64,000 nt of DNA. It comes from an uncultured Elusimicrobia bacterium (GTDB taxonomy: Bacteria; Elusimicrobiota; Elusimicrobia; UBA1565; UBA9628). Below, one piece after another: positions 1,845 to 12,024 of this stretch (the stretch's first letter is position 1; each line of letters opens with the position of its first letter). The notes under the pieces were generated by a model that saw only the letters and a program-made list of their open reading frames with translations, did not search any database and was not told the origin of the DNA. The position numbers and the translations under genes are program-made. The stretch covers positions 75,487 through 139,486 of the forward strand of contig CAIKVT010000058.1 in assembly GCA_903830945.1 (NCBI GenBank), written 5' to 3'.

Positions 1845-2782
1845 GCCAGGGGCACGCGCAAGGGCATGCTCACGGTCATGCGCACCACGGCCATCAAGGG
1901 CTCTCCGCGGTCGAGTCTCTGACCTGGGCGCTGGGCCTCACCGCGATCTTTTTTGTAGTCGAGCTTGTGGGCGGATGGTGGACCGGCAGCCTGGCGTTGA
2001 TCTCCGACGCTCTGCATATGGGCTTCGATCTGACCGCCTTGGGGTTGGGTCTCTTCGCGGCCCGGATGGCGCGGCGTCCGGCCGACACAAAGCGGACCTT
2101 CGGCTACCAGCGCGTGGAGGTTCTGGTCGCTTTGCTCAACGGCGTCACCTTGATCCTCATCACCGGCATCATCCTGCGCGAGGCTTACGTGCGGTTCTTC
2201 GCGCCGCAGGATATCAAGGCCAAGGAGATGGTGGTCATTGCGATCATCGGCCTTTTGAGCAACCTGGCTGCCGGAGCTGTGCTCTATCGTTCTAGCCGCG
2301 AGAACATCAACATGAGGGGGGCCTTTTTGCACGTGCTCTCCGACGCTCTGGGCTCCTTGGGCGCGGTCATCGCCGGGGTCATCGTCATGGAGACGGGCTG
2401 GCGTCAGGCGGACCCCGTGGTGAGCCTGCTGATCTGCCTTGGCATCGTCGTGACTTCTTATTGGCTGGTGCGCGATTCGGTGCATATCCTGCTTGAAGGC
2501 ACCCCGTCGCACCTGGAGCTGGCGCAGATCCGCGACGCGCTGAGCGCCTTGCCCGGGGTTCGCTCGGTCCATGATCTGCATCTTTGGTCCGTCACCCGGG
2601 GCACGGAGTCCATGAGCGGGCACGTGGTGGTGAGATCCGACGAGCATACCGCCGCCACCGTGCGCGTCGGGGCCAAGCTGCTTAAGGAGCGCTTCGGCAT
2701 CACGCACGTGACCTTGCAGGTGGAGACTTCGGGGCAACCCGAGTGTGAGGACACGGTCCCGCCGCCGACCGAACCGGAATGA
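1841..2782 (+). CDS. cation diffusion facilitator (CzcD/ZitB-like) metal efflux transporter
   Basis: His-rich N-terminus (HAQGHAHGHAHHGH), CDF TM signature (SDALHMGFD, LHVLSDALGS) and C-terminal cytoplasmic domain. ATGA overlap with the rlmB stop. Confidence 0.85.
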   Translation: MSQGHAQGHAHGHAHHGHQGLSAVESLTWALGLTAIFFVVELVGGWWTGSLALISDALHMGFDLTALGLGLFAARMARRPADTKRTFGYQRVEVLVALLNGVTLILITGIILREAYVRFFAPQDIKAKEMVVIAIIGLLSNLAAGAVLYRSSRENINMRGAFLHVLSDALGSLGAVIAGVIVMETGWRQADPVVSLLICLGIVVTSYWLVRDSVHILLEGTPSHLELAQIRDALSALPGVRSVHDLHLWSVTRGTESMSGHVVVRSDEHTAATVRVGAKLLKERFGITHVTLQVETSGQPECEDTVPPPTEPE

Positions 2783-3417
2783 AGCGAGAGCCTGGCGCGG
2801 CTCTGCTCCTGCTCAACGGGGATGTCTCTGATCCCGCCTTGGTGAGGCGGCTGGCGCGGCGATGCGCTTTGCTGATCTGCGCGGATGGGGGGGCGCGCCA
2901 TGCCGTCCGCCTGGGGCTGCATCCGGACGCGGTCGTGGGCGACATGGATTCGGTACCCAGGCCTTTGCCGCGGTCTTGGCGCGGGACTTCTTTTTTATGC
3001 GACTTTGATGAGGATTCCTCCGATTTCGAGAAGGCCCTGGCCTTCGTCGCGCGCACGGGCTGCTCACGGCTTTATGTGGCGGGGATTATGGGCGGACGGC
3101 TCGACCATGCTTTGGTCAACCTGGCCTTGGCCCGGGCTTGGGGCTGCCGGCGCAGCCTGGTGATGGTAGATTGGGGGCTGGCTGCGATTTTGGGCCCGGG
3201 GCGCTACCGGCTGGGACTTAAGAGGGGGGAACTGCTATCGCTCTTGGCCGCCACGCAGCGGGCCAAGCTGTCCGTCAGCGGTGTGCGCTATCCTCTGCGG
3301 CGAGCCGTCCTGGTTCCTGGAGGCCGGGGTTTGAGCAATGTGGCCCGGGGTGCGGTCTCGTTGACCGTGCATGCGGGCCGGGTCTGGGCCATGGCGCCGC
3401 GCGGTTTTTCCCTGTAG
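2779..3417 (+). CDS. thiN: thiamine pyrophosphokinase
   Basis: Conserved TPK motifs (LICADGGA, GDMDS) and C-terminal thiamine-binding region. ATGA overlap with the upstream stop. Confidence 0.7.
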   Translation: MKREPGAALLLLNGDVSDPALVRRLARRCALLICADGGARHAVRLGLHPDAVVGDMDSVPRPLPRSWRGTSFLCDFDEDSSDFEKALAFVARTGCSRLYVAGIMGGRLDHALVNLALARAWGCRRSLVMVDWGLAAILGPGRYRLGLKRGELLSLLAATQRAKLSVSGVRYPLRRAVLVPGGRGLSNVARGAVSLTVHAGRVWAMAPRGFSL

Positions 3418-3493
3418 CAGGCTTCGGCCCGGATTCCACCATCACCCTCCCTACTCCTCCCACCCCTCCCCAGGGGGGAGAGAAACCTTGCTA

Positions 3494-3524
3494 AATTGGA
3501 TATGCCAATTTGGCATATCCAATT
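3494..3524. promoter_or_regulatory. perfect 15-bp inverted repeat with 1-nt spacer (AATTGGATATGCCAA-T-TTGGCATATCCAATT), candidate operator for a dimeric DNA-binding protein
   Basis: Read directly. Arms at 3494-3508 and 3510-3524 are exact reverse complements. Sits in the non-coding gap at the left edge of the putative island, upstream of the HTH gene. Confidence 0.5.
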
Positions 3525-3570
3525 CCCAAACCGCCGTGCGCGAGTTCATTGCTGAAGACCGCGGCCTGAC

Positions 3571-3650
3571 CTACGCTGGCCAGATGGTCCAAGGCCTCGC
3601 GCAGCCCCGCGTAGCGGGGCTGCAGGCCCTCCTTGGCAATTTTGACAGCG
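3571..3650. repeat. decayed duplicate of the 3' end of the P-loop gene (left boundary repeat of the putative island)
   Basis: 3571-3608 matches 11061-11098 at 35 of 38 nt. Minus-strand translation of 3571-3650 (AVKIAKEGLQPRYAGLREALDHLAS) parallels the true C-terminus of the 11050..12024 gene (AVKAVHEGLREALDHLAG). Confidence 0.6.
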
Positions 3651-3668
3651 CTGTAAATTTATGGTCTT

Positions 3669-3881
3669 ATGGTGAGCACTATGAGCGCTAGGATGATTTC
3701 TACCGAAGAAGTGCTGACTACACCCCAAGTCTGCGGCCTGCTGAAGATCACTCGGCAGACCCTTTACACGTGGATGGAGCAGGGGAGAATCAAGCCCTGG
3801 ATGAAGGCGGGGGGAGCGTCATGGCTCTTCATACGCGACGAGATTATGCAGGCCAAGAATTCGAAATATCAGCGGGCTTGA
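3669..3881 (+). CDS. small HTH DNA-binding protein, AlpA/excisionase-like (HTH_17 type)
   Basis: 70 aa. TTPQVCGLLKITRQTLYTWMEQGRI resembles phage AlpA/Xis-type helix-turn-helix. Start uncertain (3669 or 3681). Confidence 0.6.
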   Translation: MVSTMSARMISTEEVLTTPQVCGLLKITRQTLYTWMEQGRIKPWMKAGGASWLFIRDEIMQAKNSKYQRA

Positions 3882-3916
3882 TATGGCACGAGGCAAGGGC
3901 GCTGCGGCGCAGGACA

Positions 3917-4957
3917 ATGGCCAAGATCCCTGAAGTCCACTTAGAGACCTGGAAGAGCCTTTACGCTGAGGCTCAGCGCTTCTCGCAGTCAAAGCCCTGG
4001 CAGCGCATCGATGAATCTCTCTTCTTCGCTGTTCAAGGCCCAGCCACCGGCCAGATGGGCTACGCCTGCATCCTCGGCTCCTTGGGAGAATTCCTCGCCC
4101 TCTCCGTCTATCGCGGCGCGGAAGGTTTCGGCGCATATCAAGCCATGCTCCTCGACGAGCCCGCGCTCGACGAGGAGTCCGCGTTCAAGCAAGACTGCCT
4201 CATGGCCCAGTTCACGGACAGCAAGTACGTGGAGACAGCCGACCGCAAGGTCATCCGCGCCTTGGGCCTGAAGTTCGAAGGCCACAACGCCTGGCCGCTC
4301 TTCCGCAGCTACCGCCCCGGCTATTTCCCCTGGCACCTGGATCAGCAGGAAGCCGCATTCCTGACCCTCGCATTGCGCTGCGCGTGCGATTGGGTCGAAA
4401 AGCTCTCTTCCAGCACACTCAACTCCGCCGAAGCCCCCGGGCAGATATTCACTTACCTGCCCAAGGCCGGAGGATCTCCGGAACTGTCCGACTACGAGAA
4501 CGCCTGGACGCAGCCGCCCGCTGAAGTCCCGCAGCAGCCGGCAGTGTTGGACCCCGCCCGGCTCGCCAGGCTCCAGGCCAAGCCGCTCAAGAAAGGCGGA
4601 GTCTGGGAAGCGGAAGTCTTCTACCTGCCGATCACGATCGCAGACCAGGACCGGCCCTATCACGCGCGCTTGGTCCTGCTGGTGGACCAGGACTCCGGCT
4701 TCATCCTCCCGGGGGGAGTCATGCCTCCGGGAAAGACCGCGGCCCAGCTCCTGGCGGATGCGGTATTGGGCGCCGTCGAAGAGGTCGGCTGCCTGCCCGA
4801 AGAGATACGGCTGCGCGACAGATCCGTCTTGCCGGCCCTGCAAGCGGCAGGCCAGGCGCTCGGCGTTCACGTGAAGATAGGCCGCTTCCGTTCGCTTCCG
4901 CAGGCCAAGAAGTCCCTGGTGAAAAGATTCGCCAGCCAGGGACGAGGAAACTACTGA
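3917..4957 (+). CDS. hypothetical protein (346 aa), no recognisable domain
   Basis: Long ORF with coding-like composition. Start set at MAKIPEVH (ATG 3917) because the longer track ORF overlaps the HTH gene. No motif recognised by eye. Confidence 0.55.
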   Translation: MAKIPEVHLETWKSLYAEAQRFSQSKPWQRIDESLFFAVQGPATGQMGYACILGSLGEFLALSVYRGAEGFGAYQAMLLDEPALDEESAFKQDCLMAQFTDSKYVETADRKVIRALGLKFEGHNAWPLFRSYRPGYFPWHLDQQEAAFLTLALRCACDWVEKLSSSTLNSAEAPGQIFTYLPKAGGSPELSDYENAWTQPPAEVPQQPAVLDPARLARLQAKPLKKGGVWEAEVFYLPITIADQDRPYHARLVLLVDQDSGFILPGGVMPPGKTAAQLLADAVLGAVEEVGCLPEEIRLRDRSVLPALQAAGQALGVHVKIGRFRSLPQAKKSLVKRFASQGRGNY

Positions 4958-4966
4958 TCTAGGAGA

Positions 4967-5380
4967 ATGAAAATGGCATTAGACCTAAGCAGCCTGCGCA
5001 AAGCCGCCGCCTCTCTCCAGCATGCCCTCAAAATCGCCGCCGCCCAGGCCGGCATGGACAGCGAAGACGTCATCCGCGCCGGCGTCATTAAGAACTTCGA
5101 GTTCACTTACGAGCTCTGCTGGAAGTTCATCAAGCGCTGGCTCGAAAAGAACTCTCCCGAAGCCGACCTCGAAGGCCTAACGCGCAAGGAACTTTTCCGC
5201 ATGGCCGCCGAAAGACACCTCATCAAGGACGTCGAGCCCTGGTTCAGGTACCACGCCGCCCGCAACGAAACCTCCCACACCTACGACTCGGCCAAGGCCG
5301 AAATGATCTTCGCAGCGGCCAAGCTCTTCGCGGCCGACGCCCAGGCGCTGCTCAAGGAACTCGAGAAGCGCAATGATTAA
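4967..5380 (+). CDS. hepT: HepT-like (HI0074 family) nucleotidyltransferase substrate-binding protein, toxin of a type VII TA pair
   Basis: 137 aa. Helical HI0074-type sequence with the NETSHTY region (Rx4HxY-like). AGGAG RBS. The second ATG at 4973 may be the true start. Confidence 0.8.
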   Translation: MKMALDLSSLRKAAASLQHALKIAAAQAGMDSEDVIRAGVIKNFEFTYELCWKFIKRWLEKNSPEADLEGLTRKELFRMAAERHLIKDVEPWFRYHAARNETSHTYDSAKAEMIFAAAKLFAADAQALLKELEKRND

Positions 5381-5684
5381 GGCCACTCCCGCCCAACTGC
5401 GCGCCATCAAGGATATCCTCGCCCGGCATCTGTGCGGGGCCGAGGTCCGGGCCTTCGGCTCCCGCGTCAGCGGCAAGCCCAAGCCATACTCCGACCTAGA
5501 TCTCGCCGTGTTCGCGCTCCAAAAGCTCGACGCGACCAGCCTCGAAGAAACGCGCGAGGCCTTTGCGGAGTCCGACCTTCCCTTCCGGGTCGATATCCTC
5601 GATTGGAACGCGATCTCCGAGGAATTCAAGAAGGTCATCGAAGCCGGCTACGAAGTCCTCCAGAAGTCCGGAGCTTGTAGGTAG
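5373..5684 (+). CDS. mntA: MNT-type minimal nucleotidyltransferase (HI0073 family), antitoxin partner of HepT
   Basis: 103 aa. GSRVSGKPKPYSDLDLAV nucleotidyltransferase motif (GS...DxD). 8-bp overlap (ATGATTAA) with hepT. Confidence 0.8.
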   Translation: MIKATPAQLRAIKDILARHLCGAEVRAFGSRVSGKPKPYSDLDLAVFALQKLDATSLEETREAFAESDLPFRVDILDWNAISEEFKKVIEAGYEVLQKSGACR

Positions 5685-5710
5685 GATAAGCCCGCTTCGG
5701 GCTCGCCGCC
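5673..5710. repeat. 38-bp direct repeat, copy 1 (GCTTGtAGGTAGGATAAGCCCGCTTCGGGCTCGCCGCC); overlaps the last 4 codons and stop of the MNT gene
   Basis: 37 of 38 identical to 9757-9794. Contains the small hairpin GCCCG-CTT-CGGGC. Both copies read ...ACR-stop in frame. Confidence 0.7.
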
Positions 5711-5925: not shown

Positions 5926-6258
5926 ATGAAACAACTGGATTCATATGAGCAGCTTCGAAAGGCAAAGAGAAAATATCTTTATTTATTATGCGTATTCTTC
6001 ATCACAAATCTCCTATCGCGCATCCTGCCTTGGGAGAAATCGCCGATATTTTCCGGTTTGGTCGGGTTGGTTTTCTTATGCCTGGGGGTATGGTATTTAG
6101 TCTGCACCTACCGCTTCACTAGAGCTTTAGGATACGGCGTCGGCAGCGCAATAGGCTGGTCGGTCCTCTCGATAATCCCCATGACTTATGTCTTCGTCAT
6201 GCTGGCCCTCGTTTGGAAATACAAGAAAATGACGAGTCCTCAGGACAGGACAAGATGA
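5926..6258 (+). CDS. small membrane protein (about 110 aa, 2-3 TM helices), lower GC than flanks
   Basis: Hydrophobic stretches LYLLCVFFITNLL and GLVGLVFLCLGVWYLVC, AT-rich codon usage. Start could be 5884 (track) or 5926 (MKQLD, preceded by GGAGGAG). Confidence 0.45.
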   Translation: MKQLDSYEQLRKAKRKYLYLLCVFFITNLLSRILPWEKSPIFSGLVGLVFLCLGVWYLVCTYRFTRALGYGVGSAIGWSVLSIIPMTYVFVMLALVWKYKKMTSPQDRTR

Positions 6259-6604
6259 ATGCCCTCCGAAGTCGGCCGAGCCCGCCTTCTGCAATTATAA
6301 ATCTGGGTCCCTGGCGGGACAAAGTTAGAACCTGGCTGACCCTGGAAGACACGTCCTGCTTCTCAGCCCGGGTAGATGCCCTCGTCCAGAGGAATCCCTC
6401 CCTGAGCACGATGTTAGCAAATCGGTAAGCGCCGCTGATGGGGTGCCCTGAGGGGGGGCCAAGTACCAGACATTTTTCCCCAGCTCCGTCCGCGCCCTCG
6501 CTCCCTCCGCCCTCGCCGTTGCGCCCAGCCCCCGCTGATGTCATCCTTGACGCCCCCACGATCCCGACGACACTGGCATCCCCCGTGGCTAAACTGTATC
6601 ATAG

Positions 6605-6635
6605 CGACTGCGGGCACCCTCCGGGTGCCCGCAGT
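6605..6635. other. perfect 14-bp-stem / 3-nt-loop GC-rich hairpin (GACTGCGGGCACCC-TCC-GGGTGCCCGCAGTC) in a 580-bp non-coding stretch
   Basis: Read directly. No U-tract on either strand, so not a canonical intrinsic terminator. 5774-5790 shares CCCGCAGTCGG(T/A)AGG with its right half. Confidence 0.5.
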
Positions 6636-6840
6636 CGGAAGGGGGGAGGTCGGAGGGATGATGCTGGCGAGGCGAGGGGCTCGAAGCGGGGTTATTCTAT
6701 CTACAATCATCCGCCCGCATACTCCAGGCGGAGCATAAGGGCGGAAGGGGGGGACTCCAGTGGCAAAAGCGAAGCGTGGCTATCGGCTCAAAGTGCCGTT
6801 ATCCTTACCTACGTGCAAGAAAGAGCGCAACCTATTGCGA

Positions 6841-7386
6841 TTACTTCCAAGCGGAAAAAAATCCCCAGGCGGCAAGGCTTCCTGACGCAAGCTTGGCAAC
6901 AATCGCGTTGGCGCCCAGAGCATGCACCAGCGCATGATGGAGCAGCCAGGCTGCATAAAACGCGTAGGCGCAAAGCCCAACGGCCGAGAGCCAATGGATG
7001 TTCGCCAATTGCGTCATTCGGACCAACACATAGGCCGGTATCAATAATTGCAAATTCGCGGAAACCCGCATCGCCGTCGGAGCGTCGGTCTTGCCGCCGG
7101 AAACGAAAGCCAGCACCCCGAGGATGCCGGCGCCGGCCAAGACCAGGGTCGCCGAATTGATCGCCGCAAAAAGGAAACCCATCGCGTCTGGCCGCCAATG
7201 ACTCTGCAGCCAGTTGCAGAGATCGAAACCAATCTCACCGGCCGTGTTGTAGACCAGCGATCGCAAGAAGGAATCCGCGTATCCGCCTCCGCGCGGCATG
7301 GCAATAAAATATTTCTTAGGTGATAACAGTGCCGTCTTGGTTTCAATCCAATAATTCCACGGAGACGGCTCATGCACCCAAACCAT
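6841..7386 (-). CDS. integral membrane protein, function unknown
   Basis: 181 aa. Strong RBS (GAGGAGGAGAAATC-ATG). Several hydrophobic helices. Lies in the lower-GC nested segment. Confidence 0.55.
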   Translation of the reverse strand: MVWVHEPSPWNYWIETKTALLSPKKYFIAMPRGGGYADSFLRSLVYNTAGEIGFDLCNWLQSHWRPDAMGFLFAAINSATLVLAGAGILGVLAFVSGGKTDAPTAMRVSANLQLLIPAYVLVRMTQLANIHWLSAVGLCAYAFYAAWLLHHALVHALGANAIVAKLASGSLAAWGFFSAWK

Positions 7387-9756: not shown

Positions 9757-9794
9757 GCTTGCAGGTAGGATAAGCCCGCTTCGGGCTCGCCGCC
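9757..9794. repeat. 38-bp direct repeat, copy 2 (GCTTGcAGGTAGGATAAGCCCGCTTCGGGCTCGCCGCC)
   Basis: 37 of 38 identical to 5673-5710. Lies 23 bp downstream of the RDD-Sel1 gene stop. Confidence 0.7.
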
Positions 9795-10187: not shown

Positions 10188-11102
10188 CTACTTGCAGTCT
10201 TCCGGACAGTTGCACTTGTTCTCGAACTTCTCGTCGCAGCCCCCATCGCCGCAGGCCAGGCATATCCCGGCGTAGCCGCCGATCGGCTGACCGCAGGCGG
10301 CCGCCACTGTCCTCTCGACAAGGCCCGCGCAGCATTGCGGGATGGTGTTATACCCCGGGCCGTTCGGCACGGGGGCTTCGCCGAGCTTCTTGCAGTTGGA
10401 GGGGGCCGAGAGGGCGCGCTTCCGGGCGCTCCAGGACTCGAGGACGCGGAATCCGGACTTGAAATCATTCAAGCCCTCGCGGCTCGGAGCCGGTGCAGGC
10501 GCCGGGCCCGCGCGCGGAGCGCTTACGAGCGCCAGGTACGTCGTCGCGTCATGGTCGAAGAGGGCCATGACGATGCCGTCGTAGTCGACCAGGCCCATCG
10601 GCTGTTTGAGGAGCCACGGGGTCCTGGCGAACTGCCGGCCCCAGGACGCGATGTCCTTGTCGTCGCCGAGTTTCTTCGCCAGGCAAGAGCCAGGGCTGCC
10701 CGATTTTAAATCAAGGACCGCGTAGGGCTTGCCCGCGATGAAGGCCCAGGTCTGAAATCGCGAGGCGCCCTTAAGGAGTGCTTTCAGCCCCGCCGGGTCC
10801 TGCGCGGAGAGACGTCTGAACTCATCATCCTGCAGGTGATGTGTGGGCATCGGCACACCTAAGGAGATGTCTCCTTCATCGAGCGAGAGCCTGTCCCGTC
10901 TTGCCCAATCGACGATGCCGGGGCGCATCTTCTCATAGCACTTGCGGGCTTCCTGGGTCGGCGTCGCCGCTGACACGCGCAGCGGCAGTCCGAGCAGGAG
11001 CGCCAAGCCGCAGGTCAGGGCAGCCAAGGCGATGCCTCGAAGCCGCAGCTTAGCGCCTCGCCACGCCGGCCAGATGGTCCAAAGCCTCGCGCAGCCCCTC
11101 AT
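10188..11102 (-). CDS. secreted protein with Cys-rich C-terminus (hypothetical)
   Basis: Signal peptide (RLRGIALAALTCGLALLLGLPLRVSAA). Last 60 aa contain 11 Cys (CCAGL...CGQ...CLACGDGGCDEKFENKCNCPEDCK). The track start at 11102 overlaps the upstream gene by 52 nt. The true start is probably an internal CTG/TTG near 11047 after a GAGG. Confidence 0.5.
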   Translation of the reverse strand: MRGCARLWTIWPAWRGAKLRLRGIALAALTCGLALLLGLPLRVSAATPTQEARKCYEKMRPGIVDWARRDRLSLDEGDISLGVPMPTHHLQDDEFRRLSAQDPAGLKALLKGASRFQTWAFIAGKPYAVLDLKSGSPGSCLAKKLGDDKDIASWGRQFARTPWLLKQPMGLVDYDGIVMALFDHDATTYLALVSAPRAGPAPAPAPSREGLNDFKSGFRVLESWSARKRALSAPSNCKKLGEAPVPNGPGYNTIPQCCAGLVERTVAAACGQPIGGYAGICLACGDGGCDEKFENKCNCPEDCK

Positions 11103-12024
11103 GCACGGCCTTGACCGCCGCCGGCTTCCAGGAGCTCTGGGCCTCGCGCAGGAATGACGTCTTGTCCACCCGGTTGTCGAAGCGCGCCACCGGGAGGTGA
11201 TAGGTCTTGCCGTGCGCCTTGACGGTGACGGTCCCGGGCTGCTCCGAATTCTTGAGCAGCCACTCCATGTCGTCCTGACCGTAGTCGTTGAGCATGACCT
11301 CGATGGGCACGCCGTGGTGTAGGATCGACCCTGGGTCCTTCGGGTTGCTGCGGGCTTGGTTCTTGCGGCGCGATTCCTCGGGAGTCACCCAGATGTAGAG
11401 GATGGCGGCCGTTTCGAGTAGCTTGGGCGAGAGCCGGCCCAGAGAATATCGGTAGCCGAATGGCTCGGCCAGGGGCTGCTGGGCGTTGAGCGGGCCGCCC
11501 CGGGCGAATTCGATGACTAAAGTCTTGCTATCGAAAGTGTCGGGATAGCTCTCCTGCTTCTCCTTGATCATCTTGCTGGCTTCTGTCTCCAGGGAATCAG
11601 CCAGCTTTATCCTGTGGGATTTATCGAGTTGTCCCAGCCGCGCCGGGGCGCCGACTTTGACTGAAGCGCGGTCGAAGCGGTCCAAGAGGTCCAAGGTCGC
11701 GGATTTTGGATTGAGGAATCTCTTGCGCAGCAGGTCCTCGTGGTCCTCATTGATCAGCTCGATCAGTGTGCCCCAATCCAGGGCATTGCGGAAGGGATGC
11801 TCCGGGGATTGGAAGAACACACGTTCATGGCCCATGCTCACCAGTTCGTCGTCGACGCGCCGCATCATGTGCACGTAAGGGAAATCGTCGAGCTGCACGC
11901 TGTTGCCCATGTGGAAGTCCTGGCGCCGCAAGTCCGCGGGCATCAGGTCCAGATAACGACGCACCTCGGATTTTCCCGAGGCGGGCAGGGCGAGCAGCAG
12001 GACGGTGTCGAGGACCTTGTTCAT
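11050..12024 (-). CDS. P-loop NTPase / kinase-like protein (324 aa), function unknown
   Basis: Start ATG 12024 (MNKVLDTV). Walker-A-like LLLALPASGKSE. The track ORF extends to 12468, but that N-terminal 148 aa is antisense of the upstream gene. ATGA-coupled to the 12021..13121 gene. Confidence 0.6.
   Translation of the reverse strand: MNKVLDTVLLLALPASGKSEVRRYLDLMPADLRRQDFHMGNSVQLDDFPYVHMMRRVDDELVSMGHERVFFQSPEHPFRNALDWGTLIELINEDHEDLLRKRFLNPKSATLDLLDRFDRASVKVGAPARLGQLDKSHRIKLADSLETEASKMIKEKQESYPDTFDSKTLVIEFARGGPLNAQQPLAEPFGYRYSLGRLSPKLLETAAILYIWVTPEESRRKNQARSNPKDPGSILHHGVPIEVMLNDYGQDDMEWLLKNSEQPGTVTVKAHGKTYHLPVARFDNRVDKTSFLREAQSSWKPAAVKAVHEGLREALDHLAGVARR
11061..11098. repeat. 38-bp repeat, complete copy at the 3' end of the P-loop gene (partner of 3571-3608)
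   Basis: CCACGCCGGCCAGATGGTCCAAAGCCTCGCGCAGCCCC. On the minus strand it encodes ...HEGLREALDHLAG. Confidence 0.6.

Follow-up and report, generated by a model that had tools for sequence, protein, structure and literature searches.

The locus described here is probably a decayed accessory operon that was linked to a type I restriction–modification (R-M) system. It is led by a small helix-turn-helix (HTH) gene of the HTH_17 family at 3669–3881 (+) and carries, at 3917–4957 (+), a 346-residue protein of the DUF7309 and DUF6930 families as cargo, which is probably not a recombinase. The locus lies near the left end of a 64 kb stretch of DNA from an uncultured Elusimicrobia bacterium (contig CAIKVT010000058.1, positions 75,487 to 139,486; hereafter the window, numbered from its first letter). 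Both open reading frames (ORFs) were present as given in an earlier sequence-only reading, in which they were regarded as an AlpA/excisionase-like gene and a protein of unknown family, the latter a candidate recombinase, replication or regulatory factor of an island.

Comparison with related arrays

Four genes run in the same direction (+) downstream of the thiamin pyrophosphokinase (TPK) gene, occupying 3642–5684 if the motif upstream of the first gene is included: HTH_17, DUF7309/DUF6930, HEPN and MNT. The HTH and DUF genes are separated by 35 nt and the DUF and HEPN genes by 9 nt; HEPN and MNT overlap by 8 nt. A related locus, L098, has the order HTH_17–hsdM–hsdS–AAA_21–DUF4276–DUF5131–DUF7309/DUF6930–HEPN–MNT–hsdR, with a DUF homolog 65% identical to that of the window. 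Using blastn, a head block (L098 338–608, window 3638–3912, 78% identity) and a collinear tail block (L098 6066–7812, window 3908–5672, 77% identity) were aligned.

The 35 nt spacer between the HTH and DUF genes opens with ATGGCACGAGGCAAGGGCGCTGCGGCG (3883–3909), which translates as MARGKGAAA, exactly the first nine codons of L098 hsdM. This hsdM 5'-end relic, located at 3883–3912 (+) from the blastn alignment and the translation, coincides with the junction. When the HsdM, HsdS and HsdR proteins of L098 were used as tblastn queries, nothing was found in the 64 kb window; the 30 nt relic is all that is left of hsdM. Because the window aligns with both ends of the L098 array and keeps the hsdM relic, the adjacency of the HTH and DUF genes is best read as the scar left by a deletion within a type I R-M-linked operon, with about 5.5 kb apparently missing between head and tail. 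The sequence-only reading had entertained the two genes as a functional Xis and recombinase pair; with nine hsdM codons between them, their adjacency appears to reflect a deletion and this pairing is not upheld.

Two further loci show that the genes of the operon occur in other combinations. L095 has orthologous HTH (77% identity), HEPN (73%) and MNT (67%) genes without a DUF gene, and its HTH gene is also followed by an hsdM relic (MARGKSA...). What L004 shares with the window is confined to the DUF ORF, beginning at the start codon and ending 27 nt short of the stop. Such alignments, in which homology with other loci is limited by the ORF boundaries, show the DUF gene to be an independently shuffled and apparently self-contained cargo module.

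The HTH_17 gene and its upstream motif

The HTH protein was matched to Pfam HTH_17 (PF12728; E = 5.8e-12, 46.1 bits, cutoff 27) and to TIGR01764 'excise' (30.4 bits, cutoff 28.8), and PHROG excisionase families matched it with E values of 1e-5 to 1e-8. At E ≤ 0.1 the Pfam matches were HTH_17, HTH_23, MerR, HTH_Tnp_1_2 and HTH_28 only, with no AlpA-named family among them. The earlier description as AlpA-like thus holds loosely, in the sense of a MerR-type winged HTH, and not as membership of an AlpA family. 21 homologs were found at E ≤ 1e-5. The longest ORF comprises 70 residues from 3669, while the ATG at 3681 gives 66; the latter is likely to be the true start, since the closest homologs are 66 residues long and begin with MSA....

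Close homologs (67–84% identity) are the first gene of their operon each time, with differing cargo behind them: YhcG; HEPN–MNT (L095); TerB–BrxC/D–DEAD helicase–RhuM; or hsdM (L010 and L098). No integrase was found beside the close homologs at the five loci examined. The window protein resembles AlpA and the phage Xis directionality factors in being a small winged-HTH protein of the broad MerR-like class, but unlike them neither it nor its close homologs have an integrase partner. It also resembles MAD1 of the MADS system and the HTH_17 genes found before hsdM, as a small HTH_17 protein placed first in a defence-type operon. It differs from MAD1 in scoring far below the equivalog cutoff (NCBIfam NF047737, 30.7 bits, cutoff 80; PADLOC mad1, 26.4 bits) and in that the methyltransferase gene is reduced to a 30 nt relic.

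A motif, TTGACAGCGCTGTAAATTTATGGTCT (3642–3667, +), is conserved at the DNA level about 30 nt before homologous HTH genes whose operons differ in cargo (L095, L096 and L098) and occurs once in the window. It consists of a −35-like TTGACA box and the palindrome ACAGCGCTGT, with a non-canonical −10 region; a consensus promoter scan did not call the site. We infer that the motif is a putative promoter/operator of the HTH-led operon. If 3642–3667 is a promoter, its putative −10 region and the ATG at 3669 overlap, and translation would begin at 3681. The HTH_17 protein would be a leader transcriptional regulator of cargo operons and not an excisionase, and it probably regulates its own expression through the ACAGCGCTGT palindrome next to the TTGACA box. 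A regulatory role, one of the two proposed in the sequence-only reading, is plausible. The other, that of an Xis partner to an integrase, found no counterpart either between the repeats at 3571 and 11101 or beside the five close homologs.

In other HTH_17-led cassettes (L095 1237–1314, L096 7204–7323 and the P0244 contigs) a short hsdM-like start (MARGKSA... or MAQTKK...) or an ORF of 39–40 residues was seen directly after the HTH gene. Cargo may be exchanged repeatedly just inside the first gene downstream of the HTH gene.

Public gene calls contain a further ORF of 67 residues at 3488–3691 (+). It is probably spurious, since it is antisense to the duplicated gene-end fragment described below and runs through the conserved upstream motif.

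Family assignment and distribution of the 346-residue protein

The 346-residue protein was described previously as being of unknown family. It is a new member of two catalogued families, both functionally uncharacterised: residues 12–173 (nt 3950–4435) match Pfam DUF7309 (PF23988; E = 3.7e-48, 163.5 bits, gathering threshold 27) and residues 215–333 (nt 4559–4915) match DUF6930 (PF22007; E = 4.1e-21, 75.9 bits, gathering threshold 27). An AGGA ribosome-binding site lies 4 nt before the ORF. The ORF is a real gene, as 273 homologs were found by a word-index search and 5,750 cluster representatives at E ≤ 1e-3 (2,106 at E ≤ 1e-30) by an exhaustive hidden Markov model search. Most members are 340–350 residues long and have the same two-domain architecture. 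Their hosts are uncultivated Elusimicrobia, Chloroflexi, Omnitrophota, Atribacterota, Desulfobacterota and several archaeal lineages.

The protein has no match in NCBIfam, PADLOC or PHROGs, and no tyrosine or serine recombinase profile was matched in the Pfam, NCBIfam and PHROGs scans. The family was absent by tblastn from 72,556 plasmids and 50,697 phages. A literature search returned no paper naming DUF6930 or DUF7309.

A link to Tab2-like_N (PF06485, formerly DUF1092) was found through relatives of the protein. The 346-residue protein itself gave no match at E ≤ 0.1, whereas relatives of 33–37% identity do match; the DUF6930 domain of one of them (P0026) scores 32.2 bits against a gathering threshold of 25, and many relatives carry PF06485 in precomputed annotation. 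Tab2/ATAB2 is a chloroplast and cyanobacterial RNA-binding translation factor. We take Tab2 and DUF6930 to share a WExDF...RP...D..SG pattern. The window protein differs from Tab2 in its DUF7309 N-terminal domain, in the non-photosynthetic bacterial and archaeal hosts of its family and in its location in a defence- or toxin–antitoxin-type operon.

Longer members of the family are fusions. In archaea (L021, L049 and L051) the two-domain core is fused to TPR and PRiA4_ORF3 domains; in L014, L015, L085 and P0018 the fusion partner is either an ST7-like TPR region with a SEC-C motif at the C-terminus or a SEC-C motif at the N-terminus. SEC-C motifs in SecA bind SecB and ribosomes.

Structural model and conserved residues

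An AlphaFold2 model of the 346-residue protein was calculated from a 50-sequence alignment, and residue conservation was counted in 248 family sequences. The full-length model had a mean predicted local distance difference test score (pLDDT) of 90.9 and a predicted template-modelling score of 0.87. Foldseek searches of the PDB and of viral models returned almost solely retroviral integrase cores (HIV-1, HTLV-2, BIV and RSV) and TnsB, with E values of 1e-4 to 3e-3, target-normalised template-modelling scores of 0.5–0.62, 110–130 aligned columns and 16–19% identity. A separate model of the N-terminal 175 residues (nt 3917–4441; pLDDT 86.9) had no significant neighbour in the PDB (the best was Atp11, E = 0.18). 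Since the N-terminal domain alone has no PDB neighbour, the integrase-like RNase H fold was assigned to the C-terminal DUF6930 domain of the model. DUF1092, now Tab2-like_N, was placed by Majorek et al. (PMC3985635) in the clade of the RNase H-like superfamily that holds transposases and integrases, and the Foldseek and Tab2-like_N profile results agree on an RNase H-like C-terminal domain. As modelled, the integrase-like fold of this domain appears to be a real and unexpected resemblance. The N-terminal DUF7309 domain may have a fold that lacks a solved representative.

Two other interpretations of the architecture were rejected. Secondary-structure order had raised the suspicion of two tandem RNase H-like domains or of an actin-like (ASKHA) ATPase; these were discarded because the N-terminal domain has no PDB neighbour, because hhalign detected no similarity between the N- and C-terminal halves and because phosphate-binding motifs are absent. 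A canonical DDE triad in the N-terminal domain (D33/D101/E145) was likewise discarded: D33 lies in the loop before β1, about 22% of the sequences have Gln at position 145, and the fold is unsupported.

The fold of the C-terminal domain raises the question of whether the protein is a novel DDE-like recombinase or transposase which, together with the Xis-like HTH protein, moves the 7.5 kb repeat-bounded island in which it lies. We regard this as very improbable. The best structural matches of the C-terminal domain and the classification of the related DUF1092 with transposases and integrases speak for it, as do E233 and D301 of the window clade, which correspond by eye to D64 and D116 of integrase. 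These positions were mapped by eye from sequence and secondary structure. The invariant DDE triad (Asp in β1, Asp after β4 and Glu/Asp in the next helix) is absent across the 248 sequences. The best-conserved acidic residues are E231 (98%), D/E233 (88%), D/E257 (88%) and E288 (83%). Position 301, by contrast, is acidic in 12% and Arg or Lys in 63%, and position 328, in a helix and comparable to E152, is acidic in 72%, with P328/Q329 in the window protein. The window clade thus has E/D233 and D301 and lacks the third acidic residue; in the larger clade the pattern is the other way round. When PDB sequences were searched with a profile of the family, no integrase was found and only noise was returned (nucleoporin, E = 0.3). 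The RNase H-like fold of the modelled C-terminal domain is shared with the retroviral integrase core and with DDE transposases of the TnsB/Mu type; unlike these, the 346-residue protein has no invariant D-D-E, no sequence similarity to them, no flanking DNA-binding or tetramerization domains, no transposon ends and no multicopy spread. The structural check suggested in the sequence-only reading thus gave an integrase-like fold for the C-terminal domain without the invariant triad.

The strongest conserved motif of the N-terminal domain, FEDR..L.K.D..VIK.LGLKFRG...WPLFRSY.PGY.PW, is rich in Arg, Lys and aromatic residues, which suggests a ligand- or nucleic-acid-binding surface. The protein is most likely a nucleic-acid binder with no recombinase activity.

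Genomic context of the family

The context of the family was examined in 80 loci from GTDB species representatives and in contigs of individual homologs. Clustering of 384 neighbouring ORFs yielded no conserved partner gene. Among the 140 immediate neighbours scanned with Pfam, 173 families were represented, the most frequent being aminotransferases (5–6), FAD oxidoreductases (three) and pantothenate kinase (two); none of the recurrent families was HTH_17, an integrase or a transposase. A relative of the window HTH gene was found within 6 kb of the DUF gene in one of the 80 GTDB loci. The most recurrent link was to PRiA4_ORF3, in six of the 80, either fused through TPR repeats (L021, L049 and L051) or adjacent (L007, which is the same locus as L013, and also L033 and L036). 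In the literature PRiA4_ORF3 has been reported in a transposon-passenger context only.

In the clade of the window protein (41–67% identity) all contexts are of the accessory or conflict type. The DUF gene of L004 follows a YhcG/DUF1016 nuclease gene, and this YhcG matches PADLOC PDC-S02. L007 has two DUF7309/DUF6930 paralogs (2192–3235 and 6001–7044) within 4 kb, among two PRiA4_ORF3 genes and Fic and SLFN/AlbA_2–HATPase genes, and resembles an accessory gene array. L008 is a plasmid-like contig with ParA, RepC and PolB. In L010 and L098 the DUF gene is inside type I R-M operons, between hsdS and hsdR, with Abi_C, AAA_21/DUF4276, YhcG and HEPN–MNT as neighbours. The window locus is similar to the accessory genes of type I R-M systems listed as PADLOC candidates (PDC-S02 YhcG and PDC-S09 MNT) in that its MNT protein matches PDC-S09; it differs from them in that the DUF7309/DUF6930 family is not in PADLOC and in having lost its R-M genes.

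These contexts also bear on the recombinase hypothesis. The homologs are single-copy and away from element ends, the gene is in the middle of the operon in the R-M arrays, no homolog is present in the plasmid and phage collections, and the juxtaposition of the HTH and DUF genes is explained by deletion. An association with AlpA-like genes and duplicated gene ends elsewhere, raised in the sequence-only reading, was not borne out, as the survey gave no conserved link of the homologs to HTH_17, integrases, transposases or element ends. The proposal of a recombinase or replication factor is therefore not sustained, given the lack of a DDE triad, of linkage to integrases or HTH_17 and of plasmid or phage homologs, together with housekeeping synteny in Anaerolineae.

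A second alternative is that the family has a cellular role in RNA binding or translation, as Tab2 does, and that its presence in the operon is incidental. The homology of DUF6930 to Tab2-like_N, the SEC-C fusions, the syntenic housekeeping neighbours in Anaerolineae and Caldilineaceae and the absence of copies in plasmids or phages are consistent with this. The patchy bacterial and archaeal distribution with widely varying neighbourhoods, the defence-like or mobile contexts throughout the window clade (type I R-M twice, YhcG, Fic/SLFN/PRiA4_ORF3 and the plasmid-like contig) and the tandem paralogs of L007 argue against it, and we consider it unlikely.

There is a slightly better, though still low, chance that DUF7309/DUF6930 is a domesticated integrase-like (RNase H-fold) component of conflict systems that targets nucleic acid. 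It would then be a new class of sensor or effector in type I R-M- and PRiA4_ORF3-linked arrays; its acidic site (E231/D233/D257/E288) would be non-canonical and its N-terminal fold novel.

The HEPN–MNT pair

The HEPN gene (4967–5380, +) encodes a toxin-type protein of the HI0074 family (Pfam NTase_sub_bind, E = 4.6e-37; TIGR01987, 81.6 bits, cutoff 55.8), which is 73% identical to that of L095 and 86% identical to that of L098. Its antitoxin partner, the MNT-type nucleotidyltransferase (5373–5684, +), was identified by Pfam Polbeta/NTP_transf_2 (NTP_transf_2, 33.8 bits, cutoff 21) and PADLOC PDC-S09; it scores 38.8 bits against the MntA equivalog (cutoff 60). The two are adjacent HI0074-family HEPN and MNT genes, the arrangement that characterizes a HEPN–MNT (type VII) toxin–antitoxin pair. 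Such pairs are abundant in such genomes. The last 12 nt of the MNT gene are within a 38 nt repeat, and the homology to L098 ends at 5672.

The tight, contiguous spacing of DUF, HEPN and MNT in both the window and L098 (65–86% protein identity) would fit a DUF protein that is an accessory third component of the pair, such as a sensor or modulator of the toxin, with DUF–HEPN–MNT as the unit; MNT-type nucleotidyltransferases are also found near DUF fusions in three archaeal loci. L095, however, has HTH–HEPN–MNT without the DUF gene, and an MNT relative was detectable in one and HEPN in none of the 80 GTDB loci of the DUF family. We doubt this explanation to the same degree as a Tab2-like role.

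Repeats and strain variability

The window begins at its left end with housekeeping genes (the cysS C-terminus, a SpoU methyltransferase, a CDF transporter and TPK, with its stop at 3417). A direct repeat of 38–41 nt then encloses 7.5 kb, including the operon. Its left copy (3571–3611) and its right copy (11061–11101) are identical in about 35 of the 38 nt of the core (compared with 11061–11098), with none expected in shuffled sequences. The right copy is inside the intact 3' end of a P-loop-like gene of 324 residues (11050–12024, −), and the left copy duplicates part of that gene's 3' coding end (GLREALDHLA). A duplicated gene 3' end bracketing the segment, as noted in the sequence-only reading, is therefore present. 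In the intact gene the copy is followed by the native ...AGVARR end and stop that are common to the orthologs; the distal left copy is without this native stop context, so that the polarity of the repeat differs from that of textbook 3'-end integration.

The P-loop-like protein has an LPASGKSE motif and no Pfam match. It is very strongly conserved, with 3,703 of the 8,000 scored candidates matching at E ≤ 1e-10. Those of its closest orthologs that were checked have 324 residues and AGVARR-like ends, and it looks like an uncharacterised, apparently housekeeping family. Orthologs in relatives (76–87% identity) keep the synteny with an upstream fumarase and differ downstream; none of the relatives examined provided a usable empty site or had a TPK gene beside the P-loop gene.

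No integrase was found between 3571 and 11101, and no tRNA in the 64 kb window. That the repeat-bounded island has no other recombinase speaks for the 346-residue protein as its mobilizing enzyme; the left copy, though, lacks the native gene end that textbook 3'-end integration would leave, and a repeat scan of the window gene found no terminal inverted repeats around it. The suggestion in the sequence-only reading that the integrase had been lost and the element fixed is reasonable for a repeat-bracketed segment that holds none.

The GC content is 54–58% at 6–10 kb and 63–67% in the flanks. Direct copies of a second repeat, of 38 nt, at 5673–5710 (+) and 9757–9794 (+; 97% identical) bracket a 4.1 kb low-GC block with membrane, RDD and RDD+Sel1 genes; a further copy, at 6671–6706, is inverted and 81% complementary. 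The MNT stop falls within the first copy, at the right breakpoint of the operon, and the homology to L098 ends exactly before this copy starts at 5673. Among 98 loci the repeat was seen only in contigs of the species of the window. The possibility that it is a structured terminator was discarded, its folding being no better than that of shuffled sequences (z = 0.72). Contigs of the same species with an identical DUF protein diverge from the window after 6552, and in one variant (L002 11678–11796) a GerE-family gene is found there. The island thus varies between strains in its right part. The region as a whole is plausibly a mosaic, strain-variable locus, for which 'fixed remnant without an integrase' is a fair description.

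A perfect 15+15 nt palindrome, AATTGGATATGCCAA T TTGGCATATCCAATT, was observed at 3494–3524, 77 nt past the TPK stop and shortly before the left repeat. It is AT-rich for the genome, has no second occurrence in the window, and may be an operator or recombination site or belong to the displaced fragment of the gene end.

Discussion

The history that we favour would have begun with an HTH_17-led array of accessory genes linked to a type I R-M system, as in L098. Loss of the stretch from hsdM through DUF5131 would have left the four-gene operon HTH_17–DUF–HEPN–MNT, whose leader may regulate the operon through the ACAGCGCTGT operator. The 346-residue protein would be a nucleic-acid binder without a recombinase role, possibly a non-canonical nuclease, and would serve as an accessory sensor, adaptor or effector in conflict arrays.

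Several points weigh against this history. The direction of the event, deletion in the window as opposed to insertion in L098, is deduced from the hsdM relic, and conservation is the sole basis on which the putative promoter/operator was assigned. Few of the 140 immediate neighbours match PADLOC models; in Anaerolineae and Caldilineaceae the DUF gene is in syntenic housekeeping surroundings (for example aminotransferase, pantothenate kinase and amine oxidase), and the association with defence is strong only in the Elusimicrobia clade. Finally, E231, D/E233, D/E257 and E288, conserved at 83–98%, could possibly form a non-canonical active site, and the window clade has D301 at the by-eye equivalent of integrase D116.

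The analysis removes a tempting false lead, namely that an Xis-like HTH gene next to an unknown protein gene indicates a new recombinase, and provides an example of how such a pairing can arise through the decay of an R-M-linked defence operon. For a large family of about 5,750 clusters, so far uncharacterised, it is a first description of structure and context. The conserved putative promoter and HTH_17 head before interchangeable cargo would provide a marker for accessory or defence cassettes in Elusimicrobia-type genomes.

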